Assembly: GCA_046583195.1 (NCBI GenBank)
Contig: JAYGCV010000128.1
Span: forward strand, 10,113 to 74,112
Length of the DNA stretch: 64,000 nucleotides
DNA from: Myxococcota bacterium
GTDB lineage: Bacteria; Myxococcota_A; UBA9160; UBA4427
Direction of reading: 5' to 3'
Shown here: positions 3,599 to 62,577 of the stretch, piece after piece
Layout: every line of letters begins with the position of its first letter
Position numbering within the stretch: the stretch's first letter is position 1
Notes under the pieces: model-generated
What the model saw: only the letters and a program-made list of their open reading frames with translations
Databases searched by the model: none
Told to the model about the DNA's origin: nothing
Made by a program: the position numbers and the translations under genes

Positions 3599-5149
3599 AT
3601 GTCGATCACCGAGCAGCTGAAGAAGCTCGAACAATTGAATGCCCAGGTGGCCCTCGCCGGAGGCGAGGCGCGGATCGAGCGTCAGCATAAGCTCGGAAAG
3701 TTGACGGCGCGCGAGCGCTTCGAGCTGCTCTTCGATCCCGGGACCTTCGTCGAGATCGACAAGTTCGTGGTGCATCGCTGCACCGACTTTGGGATCCAGG
3801 ACCAGAAGTACCTCGGAGACGGCGTGGTGACCGGCTATGGCCGGGTGCACGGGCGCAAGGTCTTCGCCTTCGCGCAGGATTTCACGATCTTTGGCGGCAG
3901 TCTCTCCGAGGCCTTCGCCCGCAAGATCTGCAAGATCATGGATCTCGCGATCAAGGTGGGGGCTCCTGTCATTGGCCTGAACGACGGCGCGGGAGCGCGG
4001 ATCCACGAGGGTGTGAACTCGCTCGGCGGTTACGGCGACGTCTTCCTGCGCAACGTGATGTCTTCGGGGGTGATCCCGCAGATTTCGACGATCATGGGCC
4101 CGTGTGCCGGCGGCTCGGTCTATTCCCCGATCCTCACCGACTTCCTGATCATGGTGCAGGAGACCAGCAACATGTTCATCACGGGCCCGGACGTGGTGAA
4201 GACGGTGACCCACGAGGAGGTCAGCGCCGAGGATCTCGGCGGGGCGATGGTCCACGCGACCCGGAGTGGCATCGCACACTTCGCGGCGAAGGACGAGCAG
4301 GAGTGCATCGAGACGATCAAGCACCTGCTCTCCTACCTGCCCCAGAACAACATGGAGACGCCGGCTTTCGTCGCCACCCAGGATCCGGCGGATCGGATGG
4401 ACCCGGAGCTGCGATCGGTGATTCCGGAAAACCCGAACGAGCCCTACGACATCAAGGACATCATCCTGAAGACGGTGGACGACGGACAGTTTCTCGAGAT
4501 CCACGAGCGCTACGGCCGCAACGTGGTGGTGGGCTTTGCGCGATACGGCGGCCACGCTGTTGGCATCGTGGCGAACCAGCCGGCGGTGATGGCGGGCTCG
4601 CTCGATATCGAAGGCTCGCGCAAGGCGGCGCGCTTCGTTCGCTTCTGCGACGCCTTCAACATCCCGCTCGTCACCTTCGTCGATACCCCGGGCTTCCTGC
4701 CGGGGACCGATTCGGAGCACGCGGGCATCATCATCCACGGGGCGAAGCTGCTCTACGCCTTCTGCGAGGCGACGGTGCCGCGCATCACGATCGTCACGCG
4801 CAAAGCCTACGGCGGCGCCTATGTCGTGATGAACTCAAAGCACATCCGCGCGGACGTCAACCTCGCCTTCCCGAGTGCGCAGATCGCGGTGATGGGCCCG
4901 GACGGCGCGGCCAACATCGTCTTCCGCCGGGAGATCAAGGCCGCCGAAGACCCGGCCGCGAAACGCCTCGAGCTTCAGCAGGAGTACACCGACGCCTTCG
5001 CCAACCCCTACAAGGCCGCCGAGCTCGGTTTCATCGACGACGTCATCGTCCCCGAGCAGACGCGACCGCGGGTGATCGACGCCCTCGACCTGCTGGCCGG
5101 GAAGAAGGACGAAAACCCGCCGAAGAAGCACGGCAACATCCCGCTCTAG
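3599..5149 (+). CDS. pccB: acyl-CoA carboxylase carboxyltransferase subunit (propionyl-CoA carboxylase beta / methylmalonyl-CoA carboxyltransferase type)
   Basis: 516 aa with a two-lobed carboxyltransferase pattern (GRVHGRKVFAFAQDFTIFGGSLSE, IVANQPAVMAGSLDIEGSRKAARFVRFCDAFNIPLVTFVDTPGFLPG). Confidence 0.9.
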   Translation: MSITEQLKKLEQLNAQVALAGGEARIERQHKLGKLTARERFELLFDPGTFVEIDKFVVHRCTDFGIQDQKYLGDGVVTGYGRVHGRKVFAFAQDFTIFGGSLSEAFARKICKIMDLAIKVGAPVIGLNDGAGARIHEGVNSLGGYGDVFLRNVMSSGVIPQISTIMGPCAGGSVYSPILTDFLIMVQETSNMFITGPDVVKTVTHEEVSAEDLGGAMVHATRSGIAHFAAKDEQECIETIKHLLSYLPQNNMETPAFVATQDPADRMDPELRSVIPENPNEPYDIKDIILKTVDDGQFLEIHERYGRNVVVGFARYGGHAVGIVANQPAVMAGSLDIEGSRKAARFVRFCDAFNIPLVTFVDTPGFLPGTDSEHAGIIIHGAKLLYAFCEATVPRITIVTRKAYGGAYVVMNSKHIRADVNLAFPSAQIAVMGPDGAANIVFRREIKAAEDPAAKRLELQQEYTDAFANPYKAAELGFIDDVIVPEQTRPRVIDALDLLAGKKDENPPKKHGNIPL

Positions 5150-5227
5150 GCCCGTCCCGGTTTCTGATGACGTCCCCGTTTCTGACGTTTCTGATTATTT
5201 CGGACGCGCCGCGTACTTTCGGGTGAC
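5150..5227. repeat. intergenic repeat element (CGTCCC(C)GTTTCTGA tandem copies plus a TTTCGGACGCGCCGCGTAC motif), member of the CGGGGACG-core family
   Basis: It fills the whole convergent gap between the pccB stop and the ubiquitin-like gene stop. It contains cgtcccggtttctga, cgtccccgtttctga and tttctgatta direct copies. The motif GGACGCGCCGCGTAC resembles GGACGCGCGCGGGTAC at 53213. Confidence 0.5.
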
Positions 5228-5569
5228 TCAGATCATCCCGCCCACCAGCAGTGCAAGGCCAGCGCCCCCAAGGAGAGGGAGCGCGGACCCGAACACGAGA
5301 TAGATCGTCGACTCGGTTCCGATGCCATAGTCCGAAAGAGTGCGGCTGTCTTCCATTTCCCTGCCCGCGAATACGAGGAACTGCTCGGCGGGCGGAATGC
5401 CTTCCTTGTCCTCAATCTTGTGCTTGACGTTCTCGATGGTGTCGCCCGATTCGACTTCCAGGAGGAGGGTCTTTCCGGCGCTCGTCTTCACGAAGATCTG
5501 CATGGCGAAGCTAACGTTGGCCAGAAGCACCAAGGCGGTGACGACCAGAGCCAGCTGGGTTCGGTTCAT
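5228..5569 (-). CDS. exported ubiquitin-homolog protein (signal peptide + ubiquitin fold + hydrophobic C-terminal tail)
   Basis: 113-aa ORF. Residues 1-22 ([22 protein letters not shown]) look like a Sec signal peptide. Residues 23-94 ([72 protein letters not shown]) align without gaps to eukaryotic ubiquitin. The tail is [19 protein letters not shown]. Confidence 0.9.
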
Positions 5570-5590
5570 CGGAGTCTCACGCGATTTGCA

Positions 5591-5605
5591 ATCTGAACGG
5601 TTCAG
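5591..5605. promoter_or_regulatory. perfect 15-nt palindrome TCTGAACGGTTCAGA upstream of the ubiquitin-like gene (possible operator)
   Basis: 7-bp arms around a central G. It lies 22-36 nt upstream of the ATG at 5569, in the comparatively AT-rich 102-nt spacer after tatC. Confidence 0.3.
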
Positions 5606-5671
5606 ACGGTGACGCCCCGATAAAATTTGCAGGCGGGGGAGGCCGAACCGTTTCTCTCGCCGTCCCGCCGG

Positions 5672-6391
5672 CTATTTTTTGCCGAAGAGCCAGGCGACAC
5701 CGACGCCGACCAGGTAGAGCCCGATCATCGGGATCGCCAGCAGGATCTGCGAGATCCAGTCGGGCGGAGTGAGAATGGCGGCCGCCACGAAGACCGCCAG
5801 CACCGCGTAGGGGGTCCCCTTGAACAGCTGCTTCGCGGTCACGATCCCTGAGAGCGACAAGAAGAAGACGAACACCGGGAGCTCGAAGGCCAGGCCAAAC
5901 GCGAGAAAGAGCCGCGTCGTCAGCGCGAAGACCTCGCGCATCGTCCAGGCCGAGTGCACGAACTCGCTGTCGAAGCCCGTGAAGAACCCGAACATGATCG
6001 GGAAGACCACGCTGTAGCCGAAGAAGGCGCCCAGCAGGAAGAGGCCGGTCGACGTCACCACGAAGGGGACGACGAAGCGTTTTTCGTTTGCGTACAGCCC
6101 CGGCGAGATGAAGGCCCACACCTGCCAGAAGAAGACCGGAAGGGCCAGCACGAAGCCCGCCAGCAGGGCGGACTTCAGGTAGGTGAAGAAGATCTCGGTG
6201 GGGGCGATGGCCTGGAGCGTCGTGCCCTCGGGTGCCAGGGCGGCAACGGCCGGCGCCAGTAGGATCGCGAAGATCTGTTCGGCGAAGCTCCAGGCCAGGA
6301 TGGCGCCGACGAACCACGCCAGCAGGACCCGCAACAGCCGCGACCGAAGTTCGACGAGATGCTCGGTAACGGGGAGAGCGGTTTCATCCAC
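5672..6391 (-). CDS. tatC: twin-arginine translocase subunit TatC
   Basis: Polytopic membrane protein with TatC motifs (HLVELRSRLL, FFWQVWAFISPGLY, ILTPPD). The likely GTG start at 6391 gives VDETALPVTEHLVELR, which matches the spacing of the E. coli TatC N-terminus, and overlaps the tatA stop. The ORF track extends to 6460. Confidence 0.9.
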   Translation of the reverse strand: MDETALPVTEHLVELRSRLLRVLLAWFVGAILAWSFAEQIFAILLAPAVAALAPEGTTLQAIAPTEIFFTYLKSALLAGFVLALPVFFWQVWAFISPGLYANEKRFVVPFVVTSTGLFLLGAFFGYSVVFPIMFGFFTGFDSEFVHSAWTMREVFALTTRLFLAFGLAFELPVFVFFLSLSGIVTAKQLFKGTPYAVLAVFVAAAILTPPDWISQILLAIPMIGLYLVGVGVAWLFGKK

Positions 6392-6731
6392 CGCCGGGCT
6401 CGTGTCCTTCGTCCGGCAAAGGCTTGCGAGGCTCGTCGTTCGGGGTGGCCTCGGTGCCATCCTTCAAAGCACTGGTTTCGGGCGTGCTGCTGGGGTCGGT
6501 CTGCTCGAGATCAGGAGGCGCAATGCGGTAAGAATCCGATGACGCCGCGCGCTTCAAATCTTCGCTGATGTCGGCCTCCTGGATGCTGCGACGCAGGTCG
6601 TTCGAATGGCGACGAAACTCGGCCATGCTGCGGCCCAGCGATTGCGCGAGACCCGGAAGGCGTTTCGGTCCGACGACGATCAGCGCGACCGCGAGGATGA
6701 GGACCAGTTCCGTGGCACCGATTCCGAACAC
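6384..6731 (-). CDS. tatA: twin-arginine translocase TatA/TatB-family subunit
   Basis: The N-terminus MFGIGATELVLILAVALIVVGPKRLPGLAQSLGRSMAEFRR is the canonical TatA/E/B TM-plus-amphipathic-helix signature. The C-terminal tail is acidic and Pro-rich. Confidence 0.9.
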   Translation of the reverse strand: MFGIGATELVLILAVALIVVGPKRLPGLAQSLGRSMAEFRRHSNDLRRSIQEADISEDLKRAASSDSYRIAPPDLEQTDPSSTPETSALKDGTEATPNDEPRKPLPDEGHEPGGG

Positions 6732-8654: not shown

Positions 8655-9015
8655 TCGTGTGGTGGCTCTCTCTGCCGCCTCGGCGGCGGGGGTGCACGGG
8701 TCCGCAAAAACAAGGGGCAAGTCGCGTGCCAATCCGGCCCGGCGGCAGTCCCCAGGCAGTTTACCCGTGGATCGACTGCGGCGAAACGCAGCGCATGCGC
8801 CGACGCGCGCAGGCCACGCGCAAAAGCCCGGCCTACTCGTGCGGCATGCCCTGGAATGAGAGAAAGTTTTTACCCTCGCGGTCGCACGAACTTCCACCGG
8901 GCACGCCCTCGATTGCCCCGCGCGGCGGCTTCTGCGAGCCTCGGGCTGCGCCGGGTTTCGGGGGCCTGCATTCGTAGACCCACGGCCCATGAAAGCTTCG
9001 GGAGGGACGGGAAAA

Positions 9016-9972
9016 ATGCGATCCCACGTTCGCCAAATGGCCGGAAGCCTGTGTCTCGCGGTCGGTCTGCTAGCGCCGCTGTCGGCACAGGCCGAAGTCG
9101 ACCTGCTTGGAACCTGGTACGTCCTGATCCACTACAAGGACAGCGCCACCAACAACCCCGACGTCGACCGCTGGCTCGACCGCGTCTGGTCGATCGAGAA
9201 GAAGGGCAGCCGGCTGCAGTGGACCGAGTACCCGATCGTGGTCTTCCAGAACCAGACCGGCCGCTTCGAGCGCTACCGCGGGGTGCGCAGTCGGGTGCTC
9301 TCGGCCTGGGAGCCAAACGCCACCCAGCGAGCGCAGATCAAGAGCGGCCTCGAAATCAACTCGCGCGGAAGCAAGTCGAAGAGCCTGCGCGGCTCGTGGA
9401 AGAAGGGCTACAAGAGCACCACGCGGATGCGCACCCAGTCGGCGAACGTGATCGGATACGTCGAGAACTGGAGCATTGAAGACGCCGAAACCAACCCGAT
9501 CTTCACCTTCGATGACATGATGGGGAGCGGCCGCACCGAGAACCTCGAGGGCCAGACGCGATACGAGACCCAAAAAATCGAGGAAAACGGCGACCTTCTC
9601 AGAGGCCAATACAACCGCGATGACAATCGCGCCGGCACCTTCCAGCTGATGCGAGCGGGCTCGGTGGCGCGCGTGGCCGGGAAGAGCGATCGCGTGAAGA
9701 AGGAGCGACAACGCCTCTTCCTCGAGGGTCTCGAGCGCCTGGAGGAAGAGCAGGAGGGGGGACCCAGCTCGAGTTCGAAGGCGCTGAAGGAGTACATCGA
9801 CGCGCTCGACACGTCCGAGCGGCACTGGCTCGAGGATCGACTGGCGGGTCGGCCGATGCAGGAATGGGGTGTCGTCATCCAGAAGCACTTCCGTTCGCTG
9901 CCCAAGAGCGAGCAGAAGAGACTCGCCGGGCATCTCGAGGCGCTCGAGCGCGCCTTCTCGTCGGAGAACTAG
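9016..9972 (+). CDS. secreted hypothetical protein
   Basis: GGAGGGA lies 8 nt upstream of the ATG at 9016. The signal peptide is MRSHVRQMAGSLCLAVGLLAPLSAQA|EV. The composition looks coding, with a Lys/Glu-rich C-terminal helical part. I recognise no family. Confidence 0.65.
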   Translation: MRSHVRQMAGSLCLAVGLLAPLSAQAEVDLLGTWYVLIHYKDSATNNPDVDRWLDRVWSIEKKGSRLQWTEYPIVVFQNQTGRFERYRGVRSRVLSAWEPNATQRAQIKSGLEINSRGSKSKSLRGSWKKGYKSTTRMRTQSANVIGYVENWSIEDAETNPIFTFDDMMGSGRTENLEGQTRYETQKIEENGDLLRGQYNRDDNRAGTFQLMRAGSVARVAGKSDRVKKERQRLFLEGLERLEEEQEGGPSSSSKALKEYIDALDTSERHWLEDRLAGRPMQEWGVVIQKHFRSLPKSEQKRLAGHLEALERAFSSEN

Positions 9973-17148: not shown

Positions 17149-18225
17149 TTGACGCTGTCGAAGGCAAAGCTCGAGACGCTCACCGATCATTCCACGGATA
17201 TCGTGGTGGGCACCGATCGCAAGGGCATCGTCGTCTACTACAACGACGGAGCGACTCGCAGCCTCGGTTACACGCCGGACCAGATTCTCGGCTCCCACGT
17301 TGGGAAGCTCTACCCCAGCGTCGACGAAGCGCGCAATGTGATGAACGGCTTGCGCGCCCAGCGCGGCGAAGAATCCGTTGCCCCGGCGGCTGTCCGCACC
17401 ACCTTCGTTGCAAGAGACGGCACCGAGATCCCGGTGGCGATTTCGGGGACGGTCCTCTACGACGACGACGGAGAGGAAGACGGCAGCATCGGCTACGCAA
17501 AGGATCTCCGGGAGATCCTGCGCAAGGATCAACTAGCGATCCTCGGCGAAGTCGCGATCGGTCTCTCGCACGAGATCAACAACCCGCTCGCGGTGATCCT
17601 AAACCAGGCCGAGTTGCTCGAGCGCGACGTGGATCGCCTGGCGGGCGAAGGCGATGTCTCGGTCGAATCCGAACGTCTCGACGCCATTCGTCGCGAGGTC
17701 GTCCGGGTATCGGAGATTCTCGCCCGTCTCGGCAAGATCGCGGAAGGCGACCCCTACGAAACCGTCGAGTACCAGGGCCCCGCTCGCATGATCGATCTCC
17801 GCAGCCATCGCGAAGAAGTGCGCGACCCGCTCCTGGAAGGGCTTCGCGTGCTGGTGGTCGACGACGACCTGGGCATCCGAACGACCCTGAAGGAGATTCT
17901 CGAGGGTTGGGGTTGTTCGATCGAGACCGCGGCAGACGGCCTCGAGGCCCTCGCCTGCGTCGATGCATCGGATCTCGACCTGGTCCTGTCCGACGTGGTG
18001 ATGCCGAACATGGATGGCCACGATCTCTTTCTCGCGATTCGCGAGCGTCGCCCCGGGCTGCCGGTACTGATGATGACCGCATTCCACTACGACAAGGATC
18101 ACATCTTGAAGCGCAGCCGCCTCGAGGGCCTTCCCGGGGTGATTTTCAAGAAACCCGTCGATCCCGCCCGTCTGCGCGAAGTCATGATCGAGACGATCGC
18201 GGAAGCGGGTCGCGAACCCGTTTGA
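17149..18225 (+). CDS. PAS - HisKA(DHp) - receiver protein lacking an HATPase (CA) domain
   Basis: PAS is TDIVVGTDRKGIVVYYNDGATRSLGY. The H-box is GLSHEINNPLAVI. After about 60 aa comes a canonical REC (VLVVDDD, LVLSDVVMPNMDG, MMTA, FKKP). The start is uncertain (TTG 17149 after the trxB stop). Confidence 0.75.
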   Translation: MTLSKAKLETLTDHSTDIVVGTDRKGIVVYYNDGATRSLGYTPDQILGSHVGKLYPSVDEARNVMNGLRAQRGEESVAPAAVRTTFVARDGTEIPVAISGTVLYDDDGEEDGSIGYAKDLREILRKDQLAILGEVAIGLSHEINNPLAVILNQAELLERDVDRLAGEGDVSVESERLDAIRREVVRVSEILARLGKIAEGDPYETVEYQGPARMIDLRSHREEVRDPLLEGLRVLVVDDDLGIRTTLKEILEGWGCSIETAADGLEALACVDASDLDLVLSDVVMPNMDGHDLFLAIRERRPGLPVLMMTAFHYDKDHILKRSRLEGLPGVIFKKPVDPARLREVMIETIAEAGREPV

Positions 18226-18262
18226 GGTTGCGGTTGAGTTCGCGTTCCGATTAGCGGTCGGA

Positions 18263-19033
18263 TTAGGGATTCGATTCGCGGTCCGATTCGCGATGGAGCC
18301 CGGTGCGCGCGGCGCACACCGCGTCGACCCCGGAGGCGCCCGCGCGCAGCAATTCGCGCGCGGCCTCACGCAGCGTTGCGCCGGTGGTCGCGATGTCGTC
18401 CACCAACAAAATTTGACGCCCCTGTAGCTGTTCGCATCGCCGGGCGGCGAAGGCGCCGGCCACGTTGCGCCGACGTTCGCCGCGATCGAGCCGGGTCTGG
18501 CTGGGGGTGTCGCGCTGGCGCACCAGCAGGGAAAGCCGCGGTACAAAGCTGCCGGTCGCATGCGCAGCGGCACGCGCCAGCAGCGTCGACGGGTTGAAGC
18601 CGCGCTGGCGCAATCTTCGCGCGTGCAGGGGGACGGGAAGCACCCAGTCGGGAGGCGGCCCCGGACGGCGTGCGGCGGCGAGCGTGATGAATCGCCGGGC
18701 CACTACGGTGGGGCGCGGGTCGAGTCCCGCAAGGCCGCTTCTCGGGTATTTGAAGCGTCGCAGCCAGGCCTCGGCCCCGCTCGCGTAGTCGACCGCGGCA
18801 CGACAGTGGGTGACCTCGCTCCCATATCCGTGGCAGGCGTCGCAGGGGGAGCTGGTCGCGTCGCATCTGCAGGCGAGCCACGAAAGCTTCGCGCGGCAGC
18901 GCCAACAGAAGGGGTCTTTCTCCTGCACGGACTGGTCAAGGGGTGCGTCGCAATCGACGCAGCGCGGCGGCGCGATCAGATCCAGCACGCCGCGCAAGAG
19001 CAGCGTGACATCGGCGAGCAGGTCGCTGGCCAT
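18263..19033 (-). CDS. comF: ComF-family phosphoribosyltransferase-domain protein
   Basis: N-terminal Cys-rich zinc-ribbon (PPRCVDCDAPL...CWRC) and the C-terminal PRTase motif ILLVDDIATTGATL. Confidence 0.85.
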   Translation of the reverse strand: MASDLLADVTLLLRGVLDLIAPPRCVDCDAPLDQSVQEKDPFCWRCRAKLSWLACRCDATSSPCDACHGYGSEVTHCRAAVDYASGAEAWLRRFKYPRSGLAGLDPRPTVVARRFITLAAARRPGPPPDWVLPVPLHARRLRQRGFNPSTLLARAAAHATGSFVPRLSLLVRQRDTPSQTRLDRGERRRNVAGAFAARRCEQLQGRQILLVDDIATTGATLREAARELLRAGASGVDAVCAARTGLHRESDRESNP

Positions 19034-28047: not shown

Positions 28048-28249
28048 CCATCTCGAAGCGGTTCCCCCGTGGGAAACATCCGGGTTCCGACGCGCTCTGC
28101 AGCGCGGCTTTCAGCCGATATCCTCTACCCGGTATCTTTCGTTCCGGGTGGCTCCACACGGGTGTGGAGTTCGCAGCTGAAATGATCGCCCTTCTGGGTC
28201 CACGGTTCGCGACCCGGCCGGGCCGCCAAATTTTCTAGCCCCTACCATC

Positions 28250-29674
28250 ATGGATCCGAGACAAGCCGTCAAGCCGGACCCCCGACGCGGGCTGCCCTCC
28301 GTGGATCGTCTGATCCGCGAAGCGAGCGGCGCGGCTTCGGAGCTGCCCAACTGGGCCGTGCGCGCCGCTGCGCGCGAGGCGGTCGAAGCGCTCCGGGGGG
28401 AGTTGGAAGCCCAAGGAGCGGCGGCGGACACCCGCGGGGCGAATGCCGCTGATGGCGACGTCCTGGGGCGCGCCGTGGCGGACTGCCTGGCACGGGCCGA
28501 GCGCCTGGCGAAGCCAAGCCCCCGCCGCGTGCTCAACGCTACGGGCGTCGTACTCCACACCAACCTGGGGCGGGCTCCGCTTTCTCGGGCGGCGGCCGAC
28601 GCAGTGCAGGCTGCCGCGCTCTCGTATTCGGACCTCGAGATGGACCTCGAGCAGGGGGGCCGAGGCGATCGCCTCGCCGGTGTCGCCCAGAAGCTAAGAC
28701 TGCTCTCGGGGGCCGAATCGGCCCACGTCTCCAACAACAACGCGGCCGCGCTCCTGTTGGTCCTCGACACCCTCGCCCGCGACCGCGAGGTGATCGTCTC
28801 GCGTGGAGAGTTGGTCGAAATCGGGGGCTCGTTCCGGGTTCCCGAGATCATGCAGCGCGCCGGGGTGCGCCTGGTCGAGGTGGGGACCACGAACCGTACC
28901 CACGCCGAGGACTACGAGAACGCAATCGGTCCCCAGACGGCCCTGCTGCTGAAGGTGCATCGCAGCAATTTCGAACAGAAGGGGTTCGTCGCCGAAGTGG
29001 GCCTTCCGGCACTGGCTGCGATCGGCGCGCGCGCTGGGCTGCCGGTGGTCGATGATCTCGGCAGCGGGACCCTCGTCGACCTGTCGGACCGGGGAATTCC
29101 CATCGAGGCTTTCGCCCCCTCGCGGCTCACGGCCGGCGCCGACGTGGTGTGTTTTTCCGGGGATAAACTTCTGGGCGGTCCCCAGGCCGGGATCCTGCTG
29201 GGGAAGCAGGAGATCGTGGAGCGTTGCCGACGCAACCCCCTGGCGCGAGCCCTGCGTCCAGACAAGCTCGGGATCGCAGCACTCGATGCCACCCTCGAGT
29301 GCCTGCTCGATGGGCGCGGCGAAGAGGAGATCCCGGTACTGCGGCGCTTGCTCGAGCCGGTGGCTTCGCTCGAAGCGCGCGCCCGCAAGCTCGCCGGACG
29401 GCTCGCGAAGAATCACCCCGCTCCGCTGCGCTTCGAGGTTGCGAAGGAGAGCGCCCCCGTGGGTGGCGGATCGCTGCCGGGCTTCGCACTCGAGACCTGG
29501 GTGGTCGAAGTGTCTGGCGCCGGCTCCGCCGAACGCCTCGCGGCCCGGTTGCGCCGGGCGGAAACGCCGGTCCTCGCGCGGCTTCGAGACGGTCTGCTGA
29601 AGATCGACCTGCGCACTCTCGAAGACGACGAGTGCGCCGAAGTCGAGCGCATGCTCGACGCGGCGCTTCGCTGA
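28250..29674 (+). CDS. selA: L-seryl-tRNA(Sec) selenium transferase
   Basis: 474 aa. N-terminal LPSVDRLIRE signature, the PLP-Lys region VCFSGDKLLGGPQAG, and the overall SelA layout. Confidence 0.9.
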   Translation: MDPRQAVKPDPRRGLPSVDRLIREASGAASELPNWAVRAAAREAVEALRGELEAQGAAADTRGANAADGDVLGRAVADCLARAERLAKPSPRRVLNATGVVLHTNLGRAPLSRAAADAVQAAALSYSDLEMDLEQGGRGDRLAGVAQKLRLLSGAESAHVSNNNAAALLLVLDTLARDREVIVSRGELVEIGGSFRVPEIMQRAGVRLVEVGTTNRTHAEDYENAIGPQTALLLKVHRSNFEQKGFVAEVGLPALAAIGARAGLPVVDDLGSGTLVDLSDRGIPIEAFAPSRLTAGADVVCFSGDKLLGGPQAGILLGKQEIVERCRRNPLARALRPDKLGIAALDATLECLLDGRGEEEIPVLRRLLEPVASLEARARKLAGRLAKNHPAPLRFEVAKESAPVGGGSLPGFALETWVVEVSGAGSAERLAARLRRAETPVLARLRDGLLKIDLRTLEDDECAEVERMLDAALR

Positions 29675-29714
29675 TGCTGCCCGGGGCAGCGGATCGATTC
29701 AAAACGGATCCGTC

Positions 29715-30311
29715 ATGCTGAATTCGAGTGTCCTGGTCCTGAATCGCTCCTTTCTCCCGGTCCACGTGACTTCGCTGCGGCGCGCCTTCACGCTGGTTTA
29801 CGTGGGCGGTGCGCGCGCCGTCGACAGCCGCTACCAGACGTTCGATTTCGAGGAGTGGACCAGCGGCGGCGCCCCGACGGATGCCGAGGCCGTGGGCTCG
29901 ACCGCTGGGCCCGTGCCGGTACCCCGGGTCATCCTGTTGACTCATTTCGACGGTGTGCCGAAGCGTCGGGTGCGCTTCAGTCGCAGCAACGTGTTCGCCC
30001 GGGATCGCTTCACCTGCCAGTACTGCGGGGAGCAACGACCTCGCAGCGATCTGAACCTCGACCATGTCGTGCCCCGAACAATGGGGGGACGCACGACCTG
30101 GGAGAACGTCGTTTGCTGCTGTTTATCCTGCAATCGTCGCAAGGGCGGGCGCACCCCCGAGCAGGCGGGGTTTCGCCTGGGGCGCAAGCCGGCTCGTCCT
30201 CGCTGGAGTCCGGTGCTGAGCGTGGCGCCCGCGAAGGTTCGCTACCGCGAATGGCGCCCCTTTCTCTTCTCCAGCGACGCTTCGGCGGCCTCGCAGGGCG
30301 TCGCGGTCTGA
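29715..30311 (+). CDS. HNH endonuclease-domain protein
   Basis: CQYCGEQRPRSDLNLDHVVPRTMGGRTTWENVVCCCLSCNRRKG is an HNH/zinc-finger core. The N-terminal half is a conserved unknown domain. Confidence 0.85.
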   Translation: MLNSSVLVLNRSFLPVHVTSLRRAFTLVYVGGARAVDSRYQTFDFEEWTSGGAPTDAEAVGSTAGPVPVPRVILLTHFDGVPKRRVRFSRSNVFARDRFTCQYCGEQRPRSDLNLDHVVPRTMGGRTTWENVVCCCLSCNRRKGGRTPEQAGFRLGRKPARPRWSPVLSVAPAKVRYREWRPFLFSSDASAASQGVAV

Positions 30312-48932: not shown

Positions 48933-49006
48933 GGGCCCTTAGCTCAGTTGGTGAGAGCAACCGGCTCATAACCGGACGGTCCCAGGTTCGAGTCCTGGAG
49001 GGCCCA
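48933..49006 (+). tRNA. tRNA with CAU anticodon (elongator Met or lysidine-modified Ile2; not initiator)
   Basis: The manual cloverleaf has acceptor GGGCCCT/AGGGCCC, D-arm GCTC-AGTTGGTGA-GAGC and an anticodon loop CTCATAA. The T-arm is CCAGG-TTCGAGT-CCTGG with discriminator A. The paired 1:72 and the absence of a GGG/CCC anticodon stem argue against fMet. CCA is not encoded. Confidence 0.85.
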
Positions 49007-49090: not shown

Positions 49091-49808
49091 CTACTTGTTG
49101 TGGACCAGAATCCCGCTCTCGCCGACGTAGAAGCTTTGGGTGCCGTCGACTTCGATGTTGTAGACGAGACCCCTGCCGCGGGCGACGGATCCGCCGGGAG
49201 CTTTACCGAAGGCGGCGTTTGCCGCTCTGGCCGTGGCCGCCTATCCCGCATAGAACGTGGGCATGTCCACGCGCTGGCTGCGCACCACCTTTGAGAGATG
49301 TCCTTCGCGGGTGCGGAGTACGTCGCCTGCGACGATCTCGCCGGCCTCGGTAGCCGCGACCGGTCACCCAGAAGGGGTGGCTGTCGGTGGTGTGCAGGAC
49401 CTGTCCGGCCACTTCGATCTCGCGCAGCTGGTGGGCCGGGTGCTCGTAGACCTTCGTCACCTTCGCCAGCACGCTCTGGCCGGTGTTCGGGTCGAAGGAC
49501 CAGACCTTCTCGCCGACCGCAATGTTCTCGATCGGGCGGGGTCCGGTCTCGGTGGCCACCGCGGTGTCCCCGCGGAAGCAGCCGGAATAGAAGCGGTCTC
49601 GCCCACTGCAGGTAACCGCACCCCTGCCAAAGACGGCTTCGAAAACCGTGGTTTCTTCGTCGCTGAGTCCAAGTGATTCGGCGAGATCGCTGCCGCAGCG
49701 CGCCTTCCAGCTGACGCGCCCTCCCTGCAGGTCCCCGCCGCGCTCGTTGGCGCGTGCCGTCCAACTGGCACTACAGGATTCCACGGTGACCTCGCTGACC
49801 GAGGCCAC
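49091..49808 (-). pseudogene. decayed Hint / bacterial intein-like (BIL) domain gene (one frameshift, one in-frame TAG)
   Basis: ORF 49203..49808 carries Hint blocks A/B (CFRGDTAVATETG..., TTDSHPFWV). After about 49361 the sense continues in another frame (VAATEAGEIVAGDVLRTREG...), passes a TAG at 49241-49243, and ends GLVYNIEVDGTQSFYVGESGILVHNK-stop at 49091-49093. Confidence 0.7.
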
Positions 49809-49859
49809 CCGGCCGCTGCGTGCGGGGACCCGCTAGCTTCGCGCTGCGAGGAGGGAGCC

Positions 49860-57958: not shown

Positions 57959-59241
57959 TGGGCGAGCGGAAACACTCGAGCGGGGGGCTCCCCGATTCGC
58001 TCTACCAGGGCACCCTCGACTGCGTTCACTGTGGCCTGTGTCTCTCTGCTTGCCCGACCTACCGGGTGACCGGCCAGGAGATCGCGTCGCCGCGCGGGCG
58101 CATCTACCTGATGCGCGGCGTGGCGGAGGGGCGCATCGAACTCGGGTCGGGTTTGGCGCAGGAGAGCCGCCTGTGTCTCGGCTGTCGAGCCTGCGAGACG
58201 GCCTGCCCGGCGGGTGTCGGCTACGGCGCGTTGCTCGAGGCCACGCGCAGCGTGGTGGCGCGCGAGCGCATTGACTGGGGAATCTTCCAGCGAATCGAGC
58301 GGATGGTGTTGCGCCAGTGGGTGCCACGGCCACGGAGGCTGCATTGGGCGCTCTCGCTATTGCGAGCGTTCCAGGGCCTGAAACTCGATCGACTCGCTGC
58401 TCGCTGGCTTCCGCGAAACCTAAGCGGCGCCCTGGAACTCGCACCGAGGGTTCCCCCCGCGTCTTCTCGTCGGCGCCTTCCCGCGCAGACTCCGGCGCGC
58501 GGCGAACGGCGCGGGTGCGTCGCCTTCCTCGAAGGCTGCGTGATGCCCGAGCTCTTTGGCGACGTCAACAGGGCCAGTGTCGAGCTGCTCTCGCGCCAGG
58601 GTTTCGAGGTGTTGGTCCCCGAGGCGCAGGGTTGCTGCGGAGCACTGCAAGCCCACGCCGGAGATCTCGAGACCGCGCACACACTGGCCTCGAAGAACGC
58701 GGCGGCCTTCGACGCGCTCGACGTGGATGCGATCGTGGTAAATTCTGCCGGCTGTGGTGCGGCGCTTCGCGAATGCGAGAGATGGATCGGAGCGGCGGGC
58801 GAGCGCACGGCCTCTCGCATTCGGGATATCAGCGAGTTCCTCGACGAAGTGGGCCTGCGCGGTCCCCTCGGTCGGGTTTCGCTGCGCCTCGCCTACGACG
58901 ATCCGTGCCACCTGGTCCACGCACAGGGCGTGGCCGAGGCCCCTCGGCGGTTGCTGAAGGCCATCCCCGGAATCGATCTGGTCGAACACGCCGAGGCGTC
59001 GGCGTGCTGCGGTGCGGCCGGCACCTACAACCTCGCCCAACCCGAAATGGCAAGAGCCGTTCTCGACCGCAAACTCGATCATCTCCTTGCAGCCGCACCG
59101 GAGTGTGTCGCTACCGGAAACCCGGGCTGCCTGATGCAGATCGCCTCTGGTCTGGCGCGCCGTGGCTCTGCGATTCGAGTGCTCCACCCGGTGGAGATCC
59201 TGCTCGAGGCCTGTCGGGGAGCTTCCGAGACTCAGCGGTAG
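57958..59241 (+). CDS. glcF: glycolate oxidase iron-sulfur subunit GlcF
   Basis: Two 4Fe-4S ferredoxin motifs (CVHCGLCLSACP, CLGCRACETACP) plus two CCG domains (DPCH..., NPGC). Confidence 0.9.
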   Translation: MGERKHSSGGLPDSLYQGTLDCVHCGLCLSACPTYRVTGQEIASPRGRIYLMRGVAEGRIELGSGLAQESRLCLGCRACETACPAGVGYGALLEATRSVVARERIDWGIFQRIERMVLRQWVPRPRRLHWALSLLRAFQGLKLDRLAARWLPRNLSGALELAPRVPPASSRRRLPAQTPARGERRGCVAFLEGCVMPELFGDVNRASVELLSRQGFEVLVPEAQGCCGALQAHAGDLETAHTLASKNAAAFDALDVDAIVVNSAGCGAALRECERWIGAAGERTASRIRDISEFLDEVGLRGPLGRVSLRLAYDDPCHLVHAQGVAEAPRRLLKAIPGIDLVEHAEASACCGAAGTYNLAQPEMARAVLDRKLDHLLAAAPECVATGNPGCLMQIASGLARRGSAIRVLHPVEILLEACRGASETQR

Positions 59242-61592
59242 AGGAAAGCGTCGGGCGTCGGTTTCGGCGTGCGCCAGCGCGGGAAGGCGCCCAGCGAGAG
59301 GTCGCCCAGTGAGCCCTGGAAGACCAGATCGAAGGGCAGGATCGATTCCCGAGAGCGCACCATTCCGTACTTTTCGCGCAGGCTCTCGTAGACGTAGGTC
59401 GATTGCGCCGCGGGTCGGTGGTCGATCGTTTCGGTGAGGCCGAGGCGAGCGCGCTCGAAGTAGAGATCGCGGCGCGCGTCGGCCTCGACGGCGGCGTCTT
59501 GGTCGATGCGCGCGGTTTCGAAGGTGCTCTCTTCCAGGATGGCGATCGTGCGCGCCAGACGCTCTTGCGAGATCGGCCGCTTGATCCGGTGGGGCTCATC
59601 GTCTTCGCTGGCGTTCGCGTCGACGAAGTCGAACTCGATGATGCGCCCGCCGAGAAAGGTCACGCCGCGTGGATGCAGTTCGCCGTTGGCCAGTTCGCCG
59701 TCGACGTACTCCGCCCGCAGCCCGAGCCCGTAGGGCCCTGCCACCGCGGGGTTTTCATACAGAAACCCTCGTGTCATGCGGATGCTCTGGGGGAAGCCCT
59801 CCTCGACTTCGGTTCTTGCCATGGTTCCCGCAGCGGCACCGGCTTCGGAGTCGGGATAGTCGCGTGCCAGATTCCGCAGCAGCGTGGAGCGCAGGTCACG
59901 CCGTCGGATCTTTCCCGCTGCCGTGAGCGTCTGGCCGCCGGTCTTTTCGACCAACTCGAGGCGCTTCGCCGCCGGGAAGCCCGGCTGGAAGTCGGCGAGA
60001 CGCAGCGCACGGTGAAAGTGCCCGCGACCTTCTTCGTATTCGTAGAGCCACGCGATCAGTTCTCGCGAATGCGCTCCCTCGGGGTTGCGGTCGAGATAGC
60101 GGTAGGCAGAGATCGCCATCCCTCTCTCGAAGTCGGGCTTCACGCCGCTGGTCTGCATCAGGTGGCGCAGCGGCGCGGTGACCGCCGCCTGGGCCAGGCG
60201 CGGAATCGCCATGGCGTAGCCTGCGGCTTGCGGCAGCGCCTTGTAGCGCGGCATGCGGATGTCACCGAAGACGTACCAGACGGCTTCGCGGCGCTGTTTC
60301 GTTGTCCGCTCGGCCAGGAACGTTCCGTAGGGGTTTTGATGGGGATCGCTCACCAGCGCGGCGGCGTGTCGCGCCATGTTCGATTTTGTGGGAGAGAGAC
60401 GCGCGATCGCGCCGAGATGTCGCCAACTCGCGCGCTCGCGCCCGGCTTCAAAGTGGTCGAGGGCAGCGATGAAGGCGGCCTCATCGTGCAATTCGCCCGA
60501 AGCGTCGGCGGCGCGCAATTCGCGCGCGATCGCGTCGAGATCCGAACCGGGCAGCAGCAGCGATTCCGAGACGCGTCGCACGACCACGGGGCGGCGCATC
60601 GCCAGCTCCGACAACTCGGCCTCGAAGCCCGGACCGGCCGCAAGTGTGCGCGGCCTTTCGGGCGGGTGTGACAGCTCCGTGGGCCGCTCCGTGTTCGCCT
60701 GCAGGCTGCGGTGGCGCAGGCGGCGCTGTCGCGCGATCTGTGAACTGGCTTGCGCGCCGATCGCGACCACGTTGGAGGCACCCTGAACCTCTCGTTGCGC
60801 GTGTTTCGCGTAGACTTCGGCCAGCCGCGGCTGGCCCGCTTCGAGGGCGGCATCCGCGGTTCCGGCGAGTGATCGCGCTCGCGTCTCGTGCAAGTCGCGT
60901 TCGGCACTCACGATCTGTTCGCGAACCTTCGGAGCCTCCGGTGCATCGGGGTGGGCATCGAGAAAGTGTCGCCGCAGCACCAGTGCCTGGCGTTCGGGGA
61001 GGCTGAGAGGGTCGACCTCGAGCATTCGCACCGCCCACTGCAGGACGCTCACTGCGATCTTGTAGGGGGCCAGCGCCAGTCCGCTGAGCACGGAAGTTCC
61101 GAGGGGTTCGGCAATGGCGTTGAAGGTGTGGGCGAAGAGCGTGTGACGGTGATCGAAAATGTGCCGGTCCGCGCGCTGTAGCGGATCGGAGTCGACGGCG
61201 GCCTCCAGGCGCTTTTCGAGCAGGGGGTCTGCGTTGCCCTCGGCAAGGAGCTTCTTCGAGGCTTCGCGGTAGGCCGTCGGGTCGTCGAGGCTCGCGTTTG
61301 CGAGATCGCGGCCCAGGGGTGCGAGGCGCGGGTCGGTCATTTCGAGGACGTAGAGGCTGCGCGCCACCTCTTGCTGGGAAGCGCCGAGGCTCGCCTCCAG
61401 CAGTTCAGCCGCTGCGCGATCCCGTCGCAACGGGAGCGGCGAGCGCGCCCTTCGCATCGGCTCGAGCGTGGTGGCTGCGGTGGGCACAGTCCGTGGTGGC
61501 GTGCTCTGGCAGCCGACCGTCGCCAGCAGGGCGAGCCCCGCGGTCAGCGCGATCCAAAGGCGGTGTCGGCGGTTATTGCGTGAAGCGGTCAC
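59232..61592 (-). CDS. large lipoprotein of unknown function
   Basis: The proposed GTG start at 61592 gives (M)TASRNNRRHRLWIALTAGLALLATVGC (positive n-region plus lipobox). About 786 aa, mostly helical composition, no family recognised. The ORF track extends to 61733. Confidence 0.65.
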   Translation of the reverse strand: MTASRNNRRHRLWIALTAGLALLATVGCQSTPPRTVPTAATTLEPMRRARSPLPLRRDRAAAELLEASLGASQQEVARSLYVLEMTDPRLAPLGRDLANASLDDPTAYREASKKLLAEGNADPLLEKRLEAAVDSDPLQRADRHIFDHRHTLFAHTFNAIAEPLGTSVLSGLALAPYKIAVSVLQWAVRMLEVDPLSLPERQALVLRRHFLDAHPDAPEAPKVREQIVSAERDLHETRARSLAGTADAALEAGQPRLAEVYAKHAQREVQGASNVVAIGAQASSQIARQRRLRHRSLQANTERPTELSHPPERPRTLAAGPGFEAELSELAMRRPVVVRRVSESLLLPGSDLDAIARELRAADASGELHDEAAFIAALDHFEAGRERASWRHLGAIARLSPTKSNMARHAAALVSDPHQNPYGTFLAERTTKQRREAVWYVFGDIRMPRYKALPQAAGYAMAIPRLAQAAVTAPLRHLMQTSGVKPDFERGMAISAYRYLDRNPEGAHSRELIAWLYEYEEGRGHFHRALRLADFQPGFPAAKRLELVEKTGGQTLTAAGKIRRRDLRSTLLRNLARDYPDSEAGAAAGTMARTEVEEGFPQSIRMTRGFLYENPAVAGPYGLGLRAEYVDGELANGELHPRGVTFLGGRIIEFDFVDANASEDDEPHRIKRPISQERLARTIAILEESTFETARIDQDAAVEADARRDLYFERARLGLTETIDHRPAAQSTYVYESLREKYGMVRSRESILPFDLVFQGSLGDLSLGAFPRWRTPKPTPDAFLYR

Positions 61593-62577
61593 GGTCCACC
61601 TTGAGCGTGAAGGCGAGGAAGGCCTCGAAGCGCCGGGCCGCCTGGAGTTTCTCGGGCGTCCCGTCCTCGGAGGCCACAGTCTGGTAGATCTGCGATGCCG
61701 CTTCCACCAGTTCCTCGAAGACCACCGGATCAAAGCGCAGGCTCTCCGGGGGGTTCGCCTGTACGTACTCCTGGGCCATCAGCGCGTAGAAGTCGGCGGC
61801 GTCGAGCAGGTGTTGGCGTTTTCCCTTGCTGGCGGCGTGCCGCGAGGCCACGCGCTGCAGTTCGGAGATGGTTCGTACCGAGCCGTTTACCAAGACGTGG
61901 CGCAGCGCCTTGAAGTAGCGCGCTCGGGTGACGTCGGAGCGTTCGATCTCTTCCCTTGCGACGTGCGCGTAGTGGTTGTCCGCATTCGACTCGACGATTT
62001 TGGAAAGCAGCGCAATGCGCTCGTCGAGCCCGGCGACGACGGCTTCAGGATCGGTGGGCAGGGTCTGGTTGGCGGCTCCCGGCGCGAAGGGGTCGGGGAG
62101 ATCGATCCCGACCCGATTTGCGCGGTCGATGGCCTCGACGGTGGCAGCGCTCGTTAGCGCCTCCTTGCGCAGGCGCGGACTCTTCTCGGCGGCGGCACGG
62201 TAGTGCTCGGCGGCGAGGTCGTAGGCGCGCAGACGTTCGAGACTTCGGGCCTTCGCGAAACCGATGGCAGCGTCCATGTGGCCTGCGCGGAGCGTGTCGG
62301 CGTGCATCTTCTCGAGGTTTTCGAGGCGCAAGAGCGTCGAGCGGTAGACGTTCCGGTCGGTGAAATCGGTGGCGGGTGCGAAGCGATAGGTGTCGTCCGG
62401 CACATGGCGACGCAGCACCGCGATGACTTCGATGACGCTCTCGGTGGGCCCGTAGATCGCCTCTTCGCGTTTTTGAGGGCTCTGGCAGCCGAGCCCGAAC
62501 CCCAGTGCGAGCACGAGCAGCAGCGCGACCCCGGCTGCGCCTGCGCCCGGCGATTTTGTGTGGATTGCACCCGGCAC
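61573..62577 (-). CDS. lipoprotein of unknown function
   Basis: The proposed GTG start at 62577 gives (M)PGAIHTKSPGAGAAGVALLLVLALGFGLGC (lipobox LGC). About 334 aa, helical/TPR-like composition. The rest of ORF 61573..63978 upstream is an Arg-rich shadow of cimA. Confidence 0.6.
   Translation of the reverse strand: MPGAIHTKSPGAGAAGVALLLVLALGFGLGCQSPQKREEAIYGPTESVIEVIAVLRRHVPDDTYRFAPATDFTDRNVYRSTLLRLENLEKMHADTLRAGHMDAAIGFAKARSLERLRAYDLAAEHYRAAAEKSPRLRKEALTSAATVEAIDRANRVGIDLPDPFAPGAANQTLPTDPEAVVAGLDERIALLSKIVESNADNHYAHVAREEIERSDVTRARYFKALRHVLVNGSVRTISELQRVASRHAASKGKRQHLLDAADFYALMAQEYVQANPPESLRFDPVVFEELVEAASQIYQTVASEDGTPEKLQAARRFEAFLAFTLKVDRDRFTQ

Follow-up and report, generated by a model that had tools for sequence, protein, structure and literature searches.

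A eukaryote-type ubiquitin with a predicted signal peptide, a hydrophobic tail and a polymorphic stop codon in an uncultured marine Myxococcota bacterium

Introduction

Eukaryote-type ubiquitins of bacteria are represented, in the literature that could be searched, by BfUbb and BoUbb only, and we found no description there of a wider family of ubiquitins with signal peptides. A 2018 paper names Bacteroides fragilis as the sole bacterium known to have such a protein, and a 2024 paper adds BoUbb (PMC11467351). In each case, a eukaryote-type ubiquitin lies behind a bacterial signal peptide (PMC3352274, PMC11467351), and a C-terminal cysteine or disulfide is reported to be crucial for antagonism (PMC11467351, PMC3352274). 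Import of BfUbb occurs via SusCD, which is Bacteroides-specific (PMC11467351). Here, we analyse a gene for a protein of this kind in DNA from an uncultured marine Myxococcota. The whole stretch analysed, which we call the window, is 64 kb long with a GC content of 66%. The gene lies near one end, between tatC and pccB (Table 1).

The Myxococcota protein and the Bacteroides proteins are alike in having no usable C-terminal Gly-Gly, no genes for E1 (activating) or E2 (conjugating) enzymes nearby, and a patchy presence that is specific to strains or lineages. Similarity to human ubiquitin is also comparable, at 48/76 positions for BfUbb and 49/76 for the window protein (roughly 63-69% identity). 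There are clear differences. The window protein is free of cysteine, whereas BfUbb and BoUbb need their C-terminal disulfide. Its last part is a hydrophobic helix, to which one allele adds a basic cluster, whereas BfUbb is free and has 76 residues. Its gene occupies a housekeeping slot with host-like GC content, not a low-GC island, and belongs to a different phylum in a marine habitat. As judged from sequence, the gene encodes an exported, non-conjugatable ubiquitin of the BfUbb kind, set apart by a putative membrane or sorting tail, a stop codon polymorphism, and its phylum. Antibacterial ubiquitins of the BfUbb type are soluble, pass into the supernatant or vesicles and kill related strains by way of a periplasmic peptidyl-prolyl isomerase; the hydrophobic tail of the window protein argues for a localisation other than such free release.

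Other prokaryotic systems are more remote. The ubiquitin-like proteins (Ubls) of Bil/Bub E1-E2-JAB operons, ThiS, and MoaD share only the beta-grasp fold with the window protein, and Pup does not share even that. These proteins are cytoplasmic, have a glycine end that can be exposed (Gln/Glu in Pup), are encoded beside their own enzymes, and are far more divergent. In contrast, the window protein is 69% identical to ubiquitin, carries a predicted signal peptide and has no genes of that kind beside its own.

For the C-terminus, the relevant comparison is with tripartite sorting signals. Signals such as GlyGly-CTERM and MYXO-CTERM comprise a motif, a hydrophobic helix and a basic cluster (PMC6219818, PMC11980579), and the MYXO-CTERM signature includes an invariant cysteine (PMC11980579). 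Without an intact GlyGly-CTERM, VesB is released and not kept on the cell surface (PMC6219818). The longer of the two alleles described below has the same overall form, on a signal-peptide protein, as GlyGly-, MYXO-, PEP- and IPTL-CTERM proteins. Unlike them, it matches no curated model and has neither the invariant cysteine nor a PEP or IPTL motif, and a common allele lacks the basic cluster.

Results

A ubiquitin fold with an altered surface and no free Gly-Gly

The product of the open reading frame (ORF) matches Pfam family PF00240 over residues 25-92 (E=3.8e-23; 81.5 bits against a cut-off of 25.4). A phmmer search of all PDB chains gave a gapless alignment of residues 23-93 with human ubiquitin, scoring about 90-98 bits for each ubiquitin unit. 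Identities number 49 in the first 71-72 positions (49/71, 69%) and 49/76 over the whole length. An AlphaFold2 model of the long allele has a mean pLDDT (the model's confidence score) of 87.7, exceeding 90 in the domain, with a helix at residues 3-17, a beta-grasp fold at 23-93, and a second helix at 102-120. In Foldseek searches of the PDB, the domain superposed on solved ubiquitins with root mean square deviations of 0.4-0.7 Å over 71-74 residues, and target-normalised TM scores of 0.9-0.97. We conclude that the likeness to ubiquitin is far above chance. A prior sequence-only reading of this DNA had delimited the same ORF, described a gapless ubiquitin alignment and counted about 49 of 72 identities by hand. 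Its coordinates were exact and its count agrees with ours; the profile search and structural superposition that it recommended also gave the expected result. Furthermore, it was right to class the protein as eukaryote-type, rather than as a relative of ThiS, MoaD or conjugation-operon Ubls, since the sequence is much nearer to eukaryotic ubiquitin.

Substitutions relative to human ubiquitin include L8S, R42F, I44V, K48R, K63T, H68Y, and R72G, while K6, K11, K27, K29, K33, and V70 are retained. Hence, of the canonical recognition surface and chain-forming lysines (L8, I44, H68, V70, R42, R72, K48, and K63), only V70 is kept. Because residues that contact E1 and receptors are changed (R42, R72, L8, I44, H68, K48, and K63), the target probably lies outside the canonical ubiquitin machinery, which better-conserved bacterial cousins could still mimic. 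Many substitutions are private to this protein and affect sites that are nearly invariant in 106 leader-bearing relatives (T14L, R42F, L50M, G53S, N60G, Q62G, and K63T). The LRLRGG ending is missing. Positions 72-76 read GSALP, the chain then runs into the hydrophobic helix, and there is no free Gly-Gly. Neither the 113-residue nor the 124-residue protein contains any cysteine.

The leader that precedes the domain has 22 residues and the usual n-, h- and c-regions. The n-region is basic, the core is strongly hydrophobic and S-F-A occupies positions -3 to -1. Neither a twin-arginine motif nor a lipobox cysteine was seen in the leader, and a Sec-type signal is predicted. Cleavage after S-F-A would make ubiquitin Met1 the mature N-terminus. 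In this respect, the predicted leader corresponds to the BfUbb-type signal sequence; the C-terminal cysteine and disulfide of BfUbb have no counterpart. The proposal, in the sequence-only reading, that the protein is exported agrees with the Sec-type leader. Simple export fits less well: the C-terminus is a hydrophobic helix, followed in the long allele by the basic cluster, which suggests that the protein is tethered or sorted and not freely secreted. The same reading considered an extracytoplasmic role, independent of conjugation, to be plausible. Given that there is no free C-terminal Gly-Gly, this is still the natural interpretation.

Genes for conjugation or sorting were sought among approximately 50 ORFs of the window. 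No ThiF-type E1, UQ_con E2, JAB or other deubiquitinase (DUB), rhomboid, exosortase, or sortase was found, as the sequence-only reading had stated for E1-, E2- and DUB-like genes. The gene is therefore not part of a Ubl conjugation operon: those ORFs contain no E1, E2 or JAB families, and 58 ubiquitin loci (see below) have no conserved neighbours.

A hydrophobic tail and a natural stop codon polymorphism

The sequence-only reading left the tail beyond ubiquitin position 71 uninterpreted. We found that the codon ending the ORF is polymorphic. It is TGA in the window and on at least 15 contigs, and TGG on at least 8 contigs of the same population. The TGG allele adds 11 residues (WVTRKYAARPK), giving a protein of 124 residues, of which P0001 is one example. 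Both alleles recur among the 21 members of the 90% cluster, and 10 of the TGA contigs derive from 10 different samples. The ten codons and TAA beyond the polymorphic codon are identical in all 9 aligned contigs. Comparison of contigs L001-L008 and L095-L104 places TGA on at least two backgrounds of flanking single nucleotide polymorphisms. Of 41 variable sites, 7 separate the window haplotype from TGG contig L002, while 13 separate it from the main TGA group. The presence of TGA on several backgrounds suggests recombination or recurrent mutation.

Recoding of TGA as selenocysteine was considered and ruled out. There is no selenocysteine insertion sequence (SECIS), or other Rfam match, nearby and the fold of the downstream RNA is unexceptional (z = -0.48 against shuffled sequences). 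Hence, the ubiquitin TGA is a plain stop. Note that the organism probably uses selenocysteine, since SelA is encoded in the window (28181-29674, plus strand). The selA gene is directly followed by an ORF with an HNH endonuclease domain (29601-30311, plus strand).

The tail of the long allele consists of a short motif followed by a hydrophobic helix and, at the extreme C-terminus, a basic cluster. The arrangement (GS..LLGGAG, helix, TRKYAARPK) is GlyGly-CTERM-like, yet there was no match to the NCBIfam GlyGly-CTERM model at E<=10, and the window allele lacks the cluster. Under the same threshold, the MYXO-CTERM, PEP-CTERM, and IPTL-CTERM models were not matched either; for IPTL-CTERM (TIGR04174 / PF18203), this was also the result with P0001. 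A MYXO-CTERM identity was rejected, as the invariant cysteine is missing and the model does not match. No second ORF with the same tail occurs in the window. Among the homologues examined, the PLLGGAG motif is common only to P0022, encoded on a metagenome contig of 1,074 bp. The leader of P0022 holds SRRRPLAVV, which resembles a twin-arginine signal. The window gene adjoins tatC, yet its own leader has no RR.

A wide family of prokaryotic ubiquitins with signal peptides

We scanned one genome per GTDB species with a sequence pattern and recovered at least 568 stretches that encode near-eukaryotic ubiquitin. Thus the view, in the sequence-only reading, of BfUbb as the sole well-characterised precedent holds for the literature but not for the sequence data. 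The best 80 stretches were examined. From these, 61 bona fide loci were parsed and 5 tiny contigs were set aside as contamination. A hydrophobic leader, with an A-x-A-type junction directly before MQIF, is present at 55 of the 61 loci. The C-termini differ. Six proteins end at or near LRLRGG, about 10 continue into a short helix with basic residues, and 38 are long proteins with ubiquitin at the N-terminus. These long forms carry an autotransporter beta-domain, a type IX secretion system (T9SS) C-terminal sorting domain, three SLH repeats, IPTL-CTERM, or stalks of SdrD_B, Cna_B, or DUF11 domains. For IPTL-CTERM, metagenomic relatives P0031, P0033, and P0042 score 21.0, 25.1, and 31.6 bits against a cut-off of 20.5, and locus L048 passes in Pfam. 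Judged by domain content, the family repeatedly places ubiquitin at the N-terminal tip of surface-anchored proteins.

Loci were found in complete chromosomes and isolates of Dyella species, Denitrificimonas caeni, Paenibacillus sp. FA6, Cohnella, Novipirellula rosea, Conexibacter, Arcobacter, Cocleimonas flava, and Flavobacterium sp. KJJ. Archaea of the genus Methanothrix are among the hosts too. Median identity to human ubiquitin is 67/76 and NCBI annotates members as 'ubiquitin family protein' only. The window protein shares with this family the A-x-A ending before MQIF, the single ubiquitin at the mature N-terminus, the helix plus basic cluster of the short forms, and the organisation as a stand-alone gene without conserved partners. 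It differs in that most members are 80-95% identical to eukaryotic ubiquitin, and retain L8, I44, K48, K63, and R42, all of which are changed in the window protein. In addition, no curated sorting model recognises the tail of the window protein, while its relatives score above the IPTL-CTERM cut-off or have an anchor of the T9SS, autotransporter or SLH type.

No partner gene accompanies the family. In an all-against-all BLASTP comparison of ORFs within about 6 kb of 58 loci, no protein family occurred at more than 6 loci, except ubiquitin itself and its shadow frames. A viral vector for the signal-peptide form was also considered and rejected. IMG/VR contains at least 585 ubiquitin stretches, and 75 of the 78 parsed have no signal peptide and end in RLRGG. 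The other 3 were artefacts of upstream non-coding sequence.

Several individual members are worth recording. A Rhodocyclaceae metagenome-assembled genome (MAG) has two tandem signal-peptide-ubiquitin paralogues (L051 2692-5555). In a Microthrixaceae MAG, two ubiquitin proteins lack a signal peptide and contain Thr-rich linkers (L069 6366-10753). A Methanothrix archaeon encodes a protein of 1,500 residues with a signal peptide, ubiquitin and SdrD_B/DUF11 domains (L032 773-5278). Flavobacterium sp. KJJ has a signal-peptide ubiquitin of 96 residues, with four cysteines and the ending SNPCP, representing a BfUbb-like cysteine form in Bacteroidota (L067 10001-10276). The best single-domain PDB match of this protein, ahead of human ubiquitin, is 8ysy_A, which may be BfUbb. 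Separately, plant-type polyubiquitin was found on contaminant contigs of 470-1104 bp (L056, L063, L071, L073, and L088) in species-representative isolate assemblies. The assemblies concerned are those of Flavobacterium sp. LB3P6, Rugosimonospora acidiphila, Marinobacter salinexigens, and Ectobacillus ponti.

A genuine bacterial gene in a replaceable slot

The exact protein of 113 residues is present at NCBI as MFP6564800.1, 'MAG: ubiquitin-like protein [Myxococcota bacterium]'. It is encoded on at least 15 contigs and the form of 124 residues on 8 more. Hence, at least 23 contigs, of up to 87 kb and from many samples, have identical synteny. Besides the stop codon, only synonymous differences were found in the ubiquitin gene across the 9 aligned contigs. 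The GC content at third codon positions (GC3) is 0.79 for the ORF, and 0.81 in the ubiquitin part, like that of neighbouring genes. Overall GC content is lower and this stems from codon positions 1 and 2, because the protein sequence is conserved. The sequence-only reading had raised the concern that the contig could be chimeric; the shared junctions and host-like GC3 exclude this in practice.

Best named matches for PccB, at 71-73% identity, are from MAGs of Myxococcota, Deltaproteobacteria, and Gemmatimonadota, and a close relative was found in a TARA ocean sample. The nearest relative identified, L089, has a PccB that is 91% identical, about 79% nucleotide identity, and the same flanking genes. 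In L089, the slot between pccB and tatC holds a gene for an inosine-uridine nucleoside hydrolase and there is no ubiquitin gene on the 9.8-kb contig. Nucleotide homology between the window and L089 extends precisely to the stop codon of pccB, is then lost, and is found again from the 3' end of tatC. In more distant relatives, with PccB proteins 81% and 73% identical, pccA follows pccB. Because the slot is differently occupied in L089 and in these farther relatives, the gene is not universal, or vertically inherited, in the wider lineage. From these alignments, we conclude that the ubiquitin gene fills a replaceable slot and is a lineage-specific insertion.

A survey of the pccB/tatC junction had been proposed in the sequence-only reading, and absence of ubiquitin there in the nearest relative fits horizontal acquisition. 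That part of its claim, of a horizontally acquired eukaryotic ubiquitin, stands. The direct source is less clear, since the wide prokaryotic spread of ubiquitins with the same signal-peptide/Met1 junction means that the direct donor may be a bacterium. Nearest-neighbour comparison did not resolve the donor: the window protein has 49-51/71 identities, equally, to eukaryotic and prokaryotic ubiquitins. Because the leader/Met1 junction is common to the family, and the tail motif is common to P0022, we consider the chances of a bacterial donor to be no smaller than those of a eukaryotic one. As indicated by the host-like GC3, the transfer is not recent.

Genomic setting

Coordinates of the gene, its parts and its neighbours are listed in Table 1. 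Where contigs reach far enough, gene order is constant: sigma-54 activator, tatA/B, tatC, ubiquitin, and convergent pccB. A scan of the tatC-ubiquitin spacer found neither a sigma-70-like promoter nor a terminator. Hence, co-transcription of the ubiquitin gene with tatAC is possible. The perfect palindrome in this spacer (7+1+7; 5592-5606) precedes the ubiquitin ATG by 23 nt and does not vary across the 9 aligned contigs; it may serve as an operator or form a stem where tatC ends. TTGCA, near the palindrome, was also considered as part of a sigma-54 -24/-12 site, but the spacing is wrong for this. The convergent spacer between the ubiquitin gene and pccB (5150-5227; L095 1843-2030) has 9-nt TCAGAAACG repeats, and an 18-nt unit, with copy number that varies between strains. 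The distance from the TAA to the pccB stop is 27, 45, 135, or 153 nt among strains. In the long variants, about 75 nt form a palindrome that is nearly perfect and resembles a repetitive extragenic palindromic (REP) hairpin.

Table 1. Features of the ubiquitin gene and its immediate neighbours in the window
Feature	Coordinates	Strand	Description and basis
Whole ORF, window allele	5228..5569	minus	113 aa, ATG start; signal peptide + ubiquitin domain + hydrophobic tail + TGA
Signal peptide (predicted), residues 1-22	5504..5569	minus	Read from sequence; model helix 3-17
Ubiquitin fold, residues 23-93 (ubiquitin positions 1-71)	5291..5503	minus	Pfam, PDB phmmer, Foldseek
Tail, residues 94-113	5231..5290	minus	Short linker + hydrophobic helix replacing RLRGG tail; model helix 102-120 in long allele
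Polymorphic codon TGA (stop)/TGG (Trp)	5228..5230	minus	9-contig alignment; 113- and 124-aa cluster members
VTRKYAARPK (ten codons) + TAA	5195..5227	minus	Translated in TGG allele only; TAA at 5195-5197; sequence, P0001 and other 124-aa members
Spacer, tatC stop to ubiquitin start	5570..5671	minus	102 nt; holds invariant palindrome TCTGAACGGTTCAGA
tatC	5672-6391	minus	Directly upstream of ubiquitin gene; Pfam
tatA/B	6384-6731	minus	Upstream of tatC; Pfam
pccB	3599-5149	plus	Converges on ubiquitin gene; Pfam

Pfam scans of about 50 ORFs, together with precomputed annotations, identify housekeeping genes in the window, with a few ORFs matching no Pfam family; the high-GC housekeeping surroundings are thus as the sequence-only reading described. 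Besides pccB, tatAC, and the sigma-54 activator, families represented are an IclR regulator, acyl-CoA dehydrogenase, malic enzyme, aminotransferase, M23 peptidase, GCS2, a thioredoxin-reductase-like protein, iPGM, RsfS, a NadD-like protein, ProA/ProB, Obg, RNase E/G, SelA, Rho, EPSP synthase, HisD/B/H, S21, DnaG, RpoD, PCMT, and others. An ORF at 49206-49832 (minus strand) has weak Hint / pretoxin-HINT matches (E ~2e-6, with bit scores near the cut-off) and lies beside a tRNA gene (48933-49006, plus strand), the only one in the window. Three ORFs lack a Pfam match but have a good coding signature: 8989-9972 (plus strand), which has a signal peptide, 17599-18702 (minus strand), and 59232-61778 (minus strand), which encodes 849 residues.

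Discussion

The explanation that we favour, with slightly more confidence than doubt, is that the gene encodes a horizontally acquired ubiquitin of eukaryotic descent, which is exported, tethered to the envelope and serves, unconjugated, as a display or binding module. The gene may have come from another prokaryote in which a signal-peptide-ubiquitin cassette was already present, and would have been retained long enough to acquire host-like codon usage. The hydrophobic leader would route the nascent chain through Sec. Signal peptidase I would then cut after S-F-A, at a junction conserved in the family, so that the mature protein starts with Met1. Subsequently, the modelled ubiquitin fold would form outside the cytoplasm. 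By analogy with tripartite signals, the C-terminal helix may hold the protein in the membrane, with the long allele forming a stop-transfer anchor and leaving its basic cluster in the cytoplasm. Alternatively, the tail may be a sorting signal for transfer to the cell surface. The result would be a displayed module for binding or mimicry. Its action would be conjugation-free: there is no free Gly-Gly, no cysteine, no nearby E1, E2 or DUB, and the family has no partner gene that is conserved. Localisation may not be the same for both alleles. In particular, and by analogy with VesB (PMC6219818), the TGA allele may shift the protein from anchored towards released.

Several observations weigh against this explanation. 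First, the window allele has no basic cluster. Second, at E<=10 in NCBIfam, the tail gave no match above the cut-off, the best being GVDTG_CTERM at 10.4 bits against 29. Third, a plain stop-transfer anchor in a diderm would put ubiquitin in the periplasm, not on the surface. Fourth, the protein is a long branch, with at most 51/71 identities to any eukaryotic or prokaryotic relative, and the truncating allele is common; both would also be expected under relaxed selection. Fifth, the portion of the genome seen is about 87 kb, so no sorting enzyme can be named. Note also that expression, export, cleavage, and location are all read from sequence patterns.

One alternative is a BfUbb-like weapon: after release, either free or in vesicles, the ubiquitin would enter competing or prey bacteria and act as a poison on a target in their periplasm, for example a peptidyl-prolyl isomerase. 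We regard this as unlikely. It would suit a predatory or competitive myxobacterium, and the design is that of BfUbb: a signal peptide, 64-69% ubiquitin identity, no Gly-Gly, and no conjugation genes (PMC3352274, PMC11467351). Furthermore, judging from the behaviour of VesB (PMC6219818), the TGA allele could be the released form. However, the protein has no cysteine, while the C-terminal disulfide is reported to be crucial for both BfUbb and BoUbb, and the analogy with inter-strain antagonism drawn in the sequence-only reading consequently has no specific support. The membrane helix and basic cluster of the long allele are absent from BfUbb, BfUbb import uses the Bacteroides-specific SusCD, and no neighbour resembling a toxin or immunity gene was found, in a family with no conserved neighbour at all.

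Improbable too, in our judgement, is that the gene is a functionless acquisition, drifting under relaxed selection, with TGA as the first step to a pseudogene. The long branch (49/76 to human ubiquitin, against a family median of 67/76), and the many private substitutions at otherwise nearly invariant positions, would be explained in this way. So would the common nonsense allele, on at least two haplotype backgrounds, and the lack of the gene in the nearest relative. Against decay, the frame, signal peptide, and fold core are intact in all of the 23 or more contigs, host-level GC3 implies long residence without loss, differences besides the stop are synonymous in the 9 aligned contigs, and the structural model is confident. 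Moreover, truncation costs only 11 residues past the helix.

A more speculative scheme, which we consider quite doubtful, is covalent attachment. An intramembrane sorting protease would cut at the conserved LLGG and, in the manner of rhombosortase with GlyGly-CTERM proteins, the glycine would be joined by an amide bond to the head group of a lipid or to a polymer at the surface. Signals of this sort have a generic layout that the long allele shares, namely a motif with Gly/Ser, a hydrophobic helix, and a basic cluster (PMC6219818, PMC11980579). PLLGGAG recurs in P0022, an independent relative, and other family members have bona fide IPTL-CTERM. Conversely, no GlyGly-, MYXO-, PEP-, or IPTL-CTERM model matches, no other ORF in the window has the tail, neither a rhomboid nor an exosortase gene turned up in the 64 kb, and one common allele is without the basic cluster. 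If the tail were a new type of sorting and processing signal, cut at LLGG to leave a ubiquitin-like glycine end outside the cytoplasm, and we give this an equally slim chance, the outcome would be extracytoplasmic conjugation of a true ubiquitin to a phospholipid head group or surface polymer, independent of E1 and E2 and a bacterial parallel to the attachment of Atg8 to phosphatidylethanolamine. The TGA/TGG polymorphism would then switch between released and anchored forms.

Very improbable is a periplasmic housekeeping accessory of the twin-arginine translocation (Tat) system, co-transcribed with tatA-tatC. In its favour, the gene follows tatC after 102 nt, in the same orientation, nothing resembling a promoter or terminator separates the two, and every contig has this arrangement. 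Against it, tatA-tatC stand without ubiquitin in the closest relative, tat neighbours occur at 0 of 57 other ubiquitin loci, and the leader has no twin-arginine motif. Finally, assembly chimerism or eukaryotic contamination is effectively refuted: some GTDB genomes do hold polyubiquitin on tiny contigs, as noted above, but here the same junctions recur on at least 23 independently assembled contigs of up to 87 kb, GC3 is host-like, the protein has a bacterial-type signal peptide and hydrophobic tail, and there is a single unit, neither polyubiquitin nor a ribosomal fusion.

In the accessible literature, eukaryote-type bacterial ubiquitin is a curiosity of Bacteroides. The locus and its relatives point to something much wider. 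Above all, the locus is of value for bringing to light a widespread group of prokaryotic ubiquitins with signal peptides, of which we found no description in the literature searched. Members occur in hundreds of bacterial, and some archaeal, species from many phyla. The ubiquitin is usually near-identical to that of eukaryotes and is mounted on every common type of surface anchor. The Myxococcota gene is a divergent case, in which canonical recognition residues have been lost and a putative membrane tail is present. Its natural stop codon polymorphism provides a ready pair of alleles for comparing anchoring with release. If family members are indeed displayed at the surface, prokaryotes would have in them a widespread way of showing ubiquitin to grazers, hosts, or neighbours.

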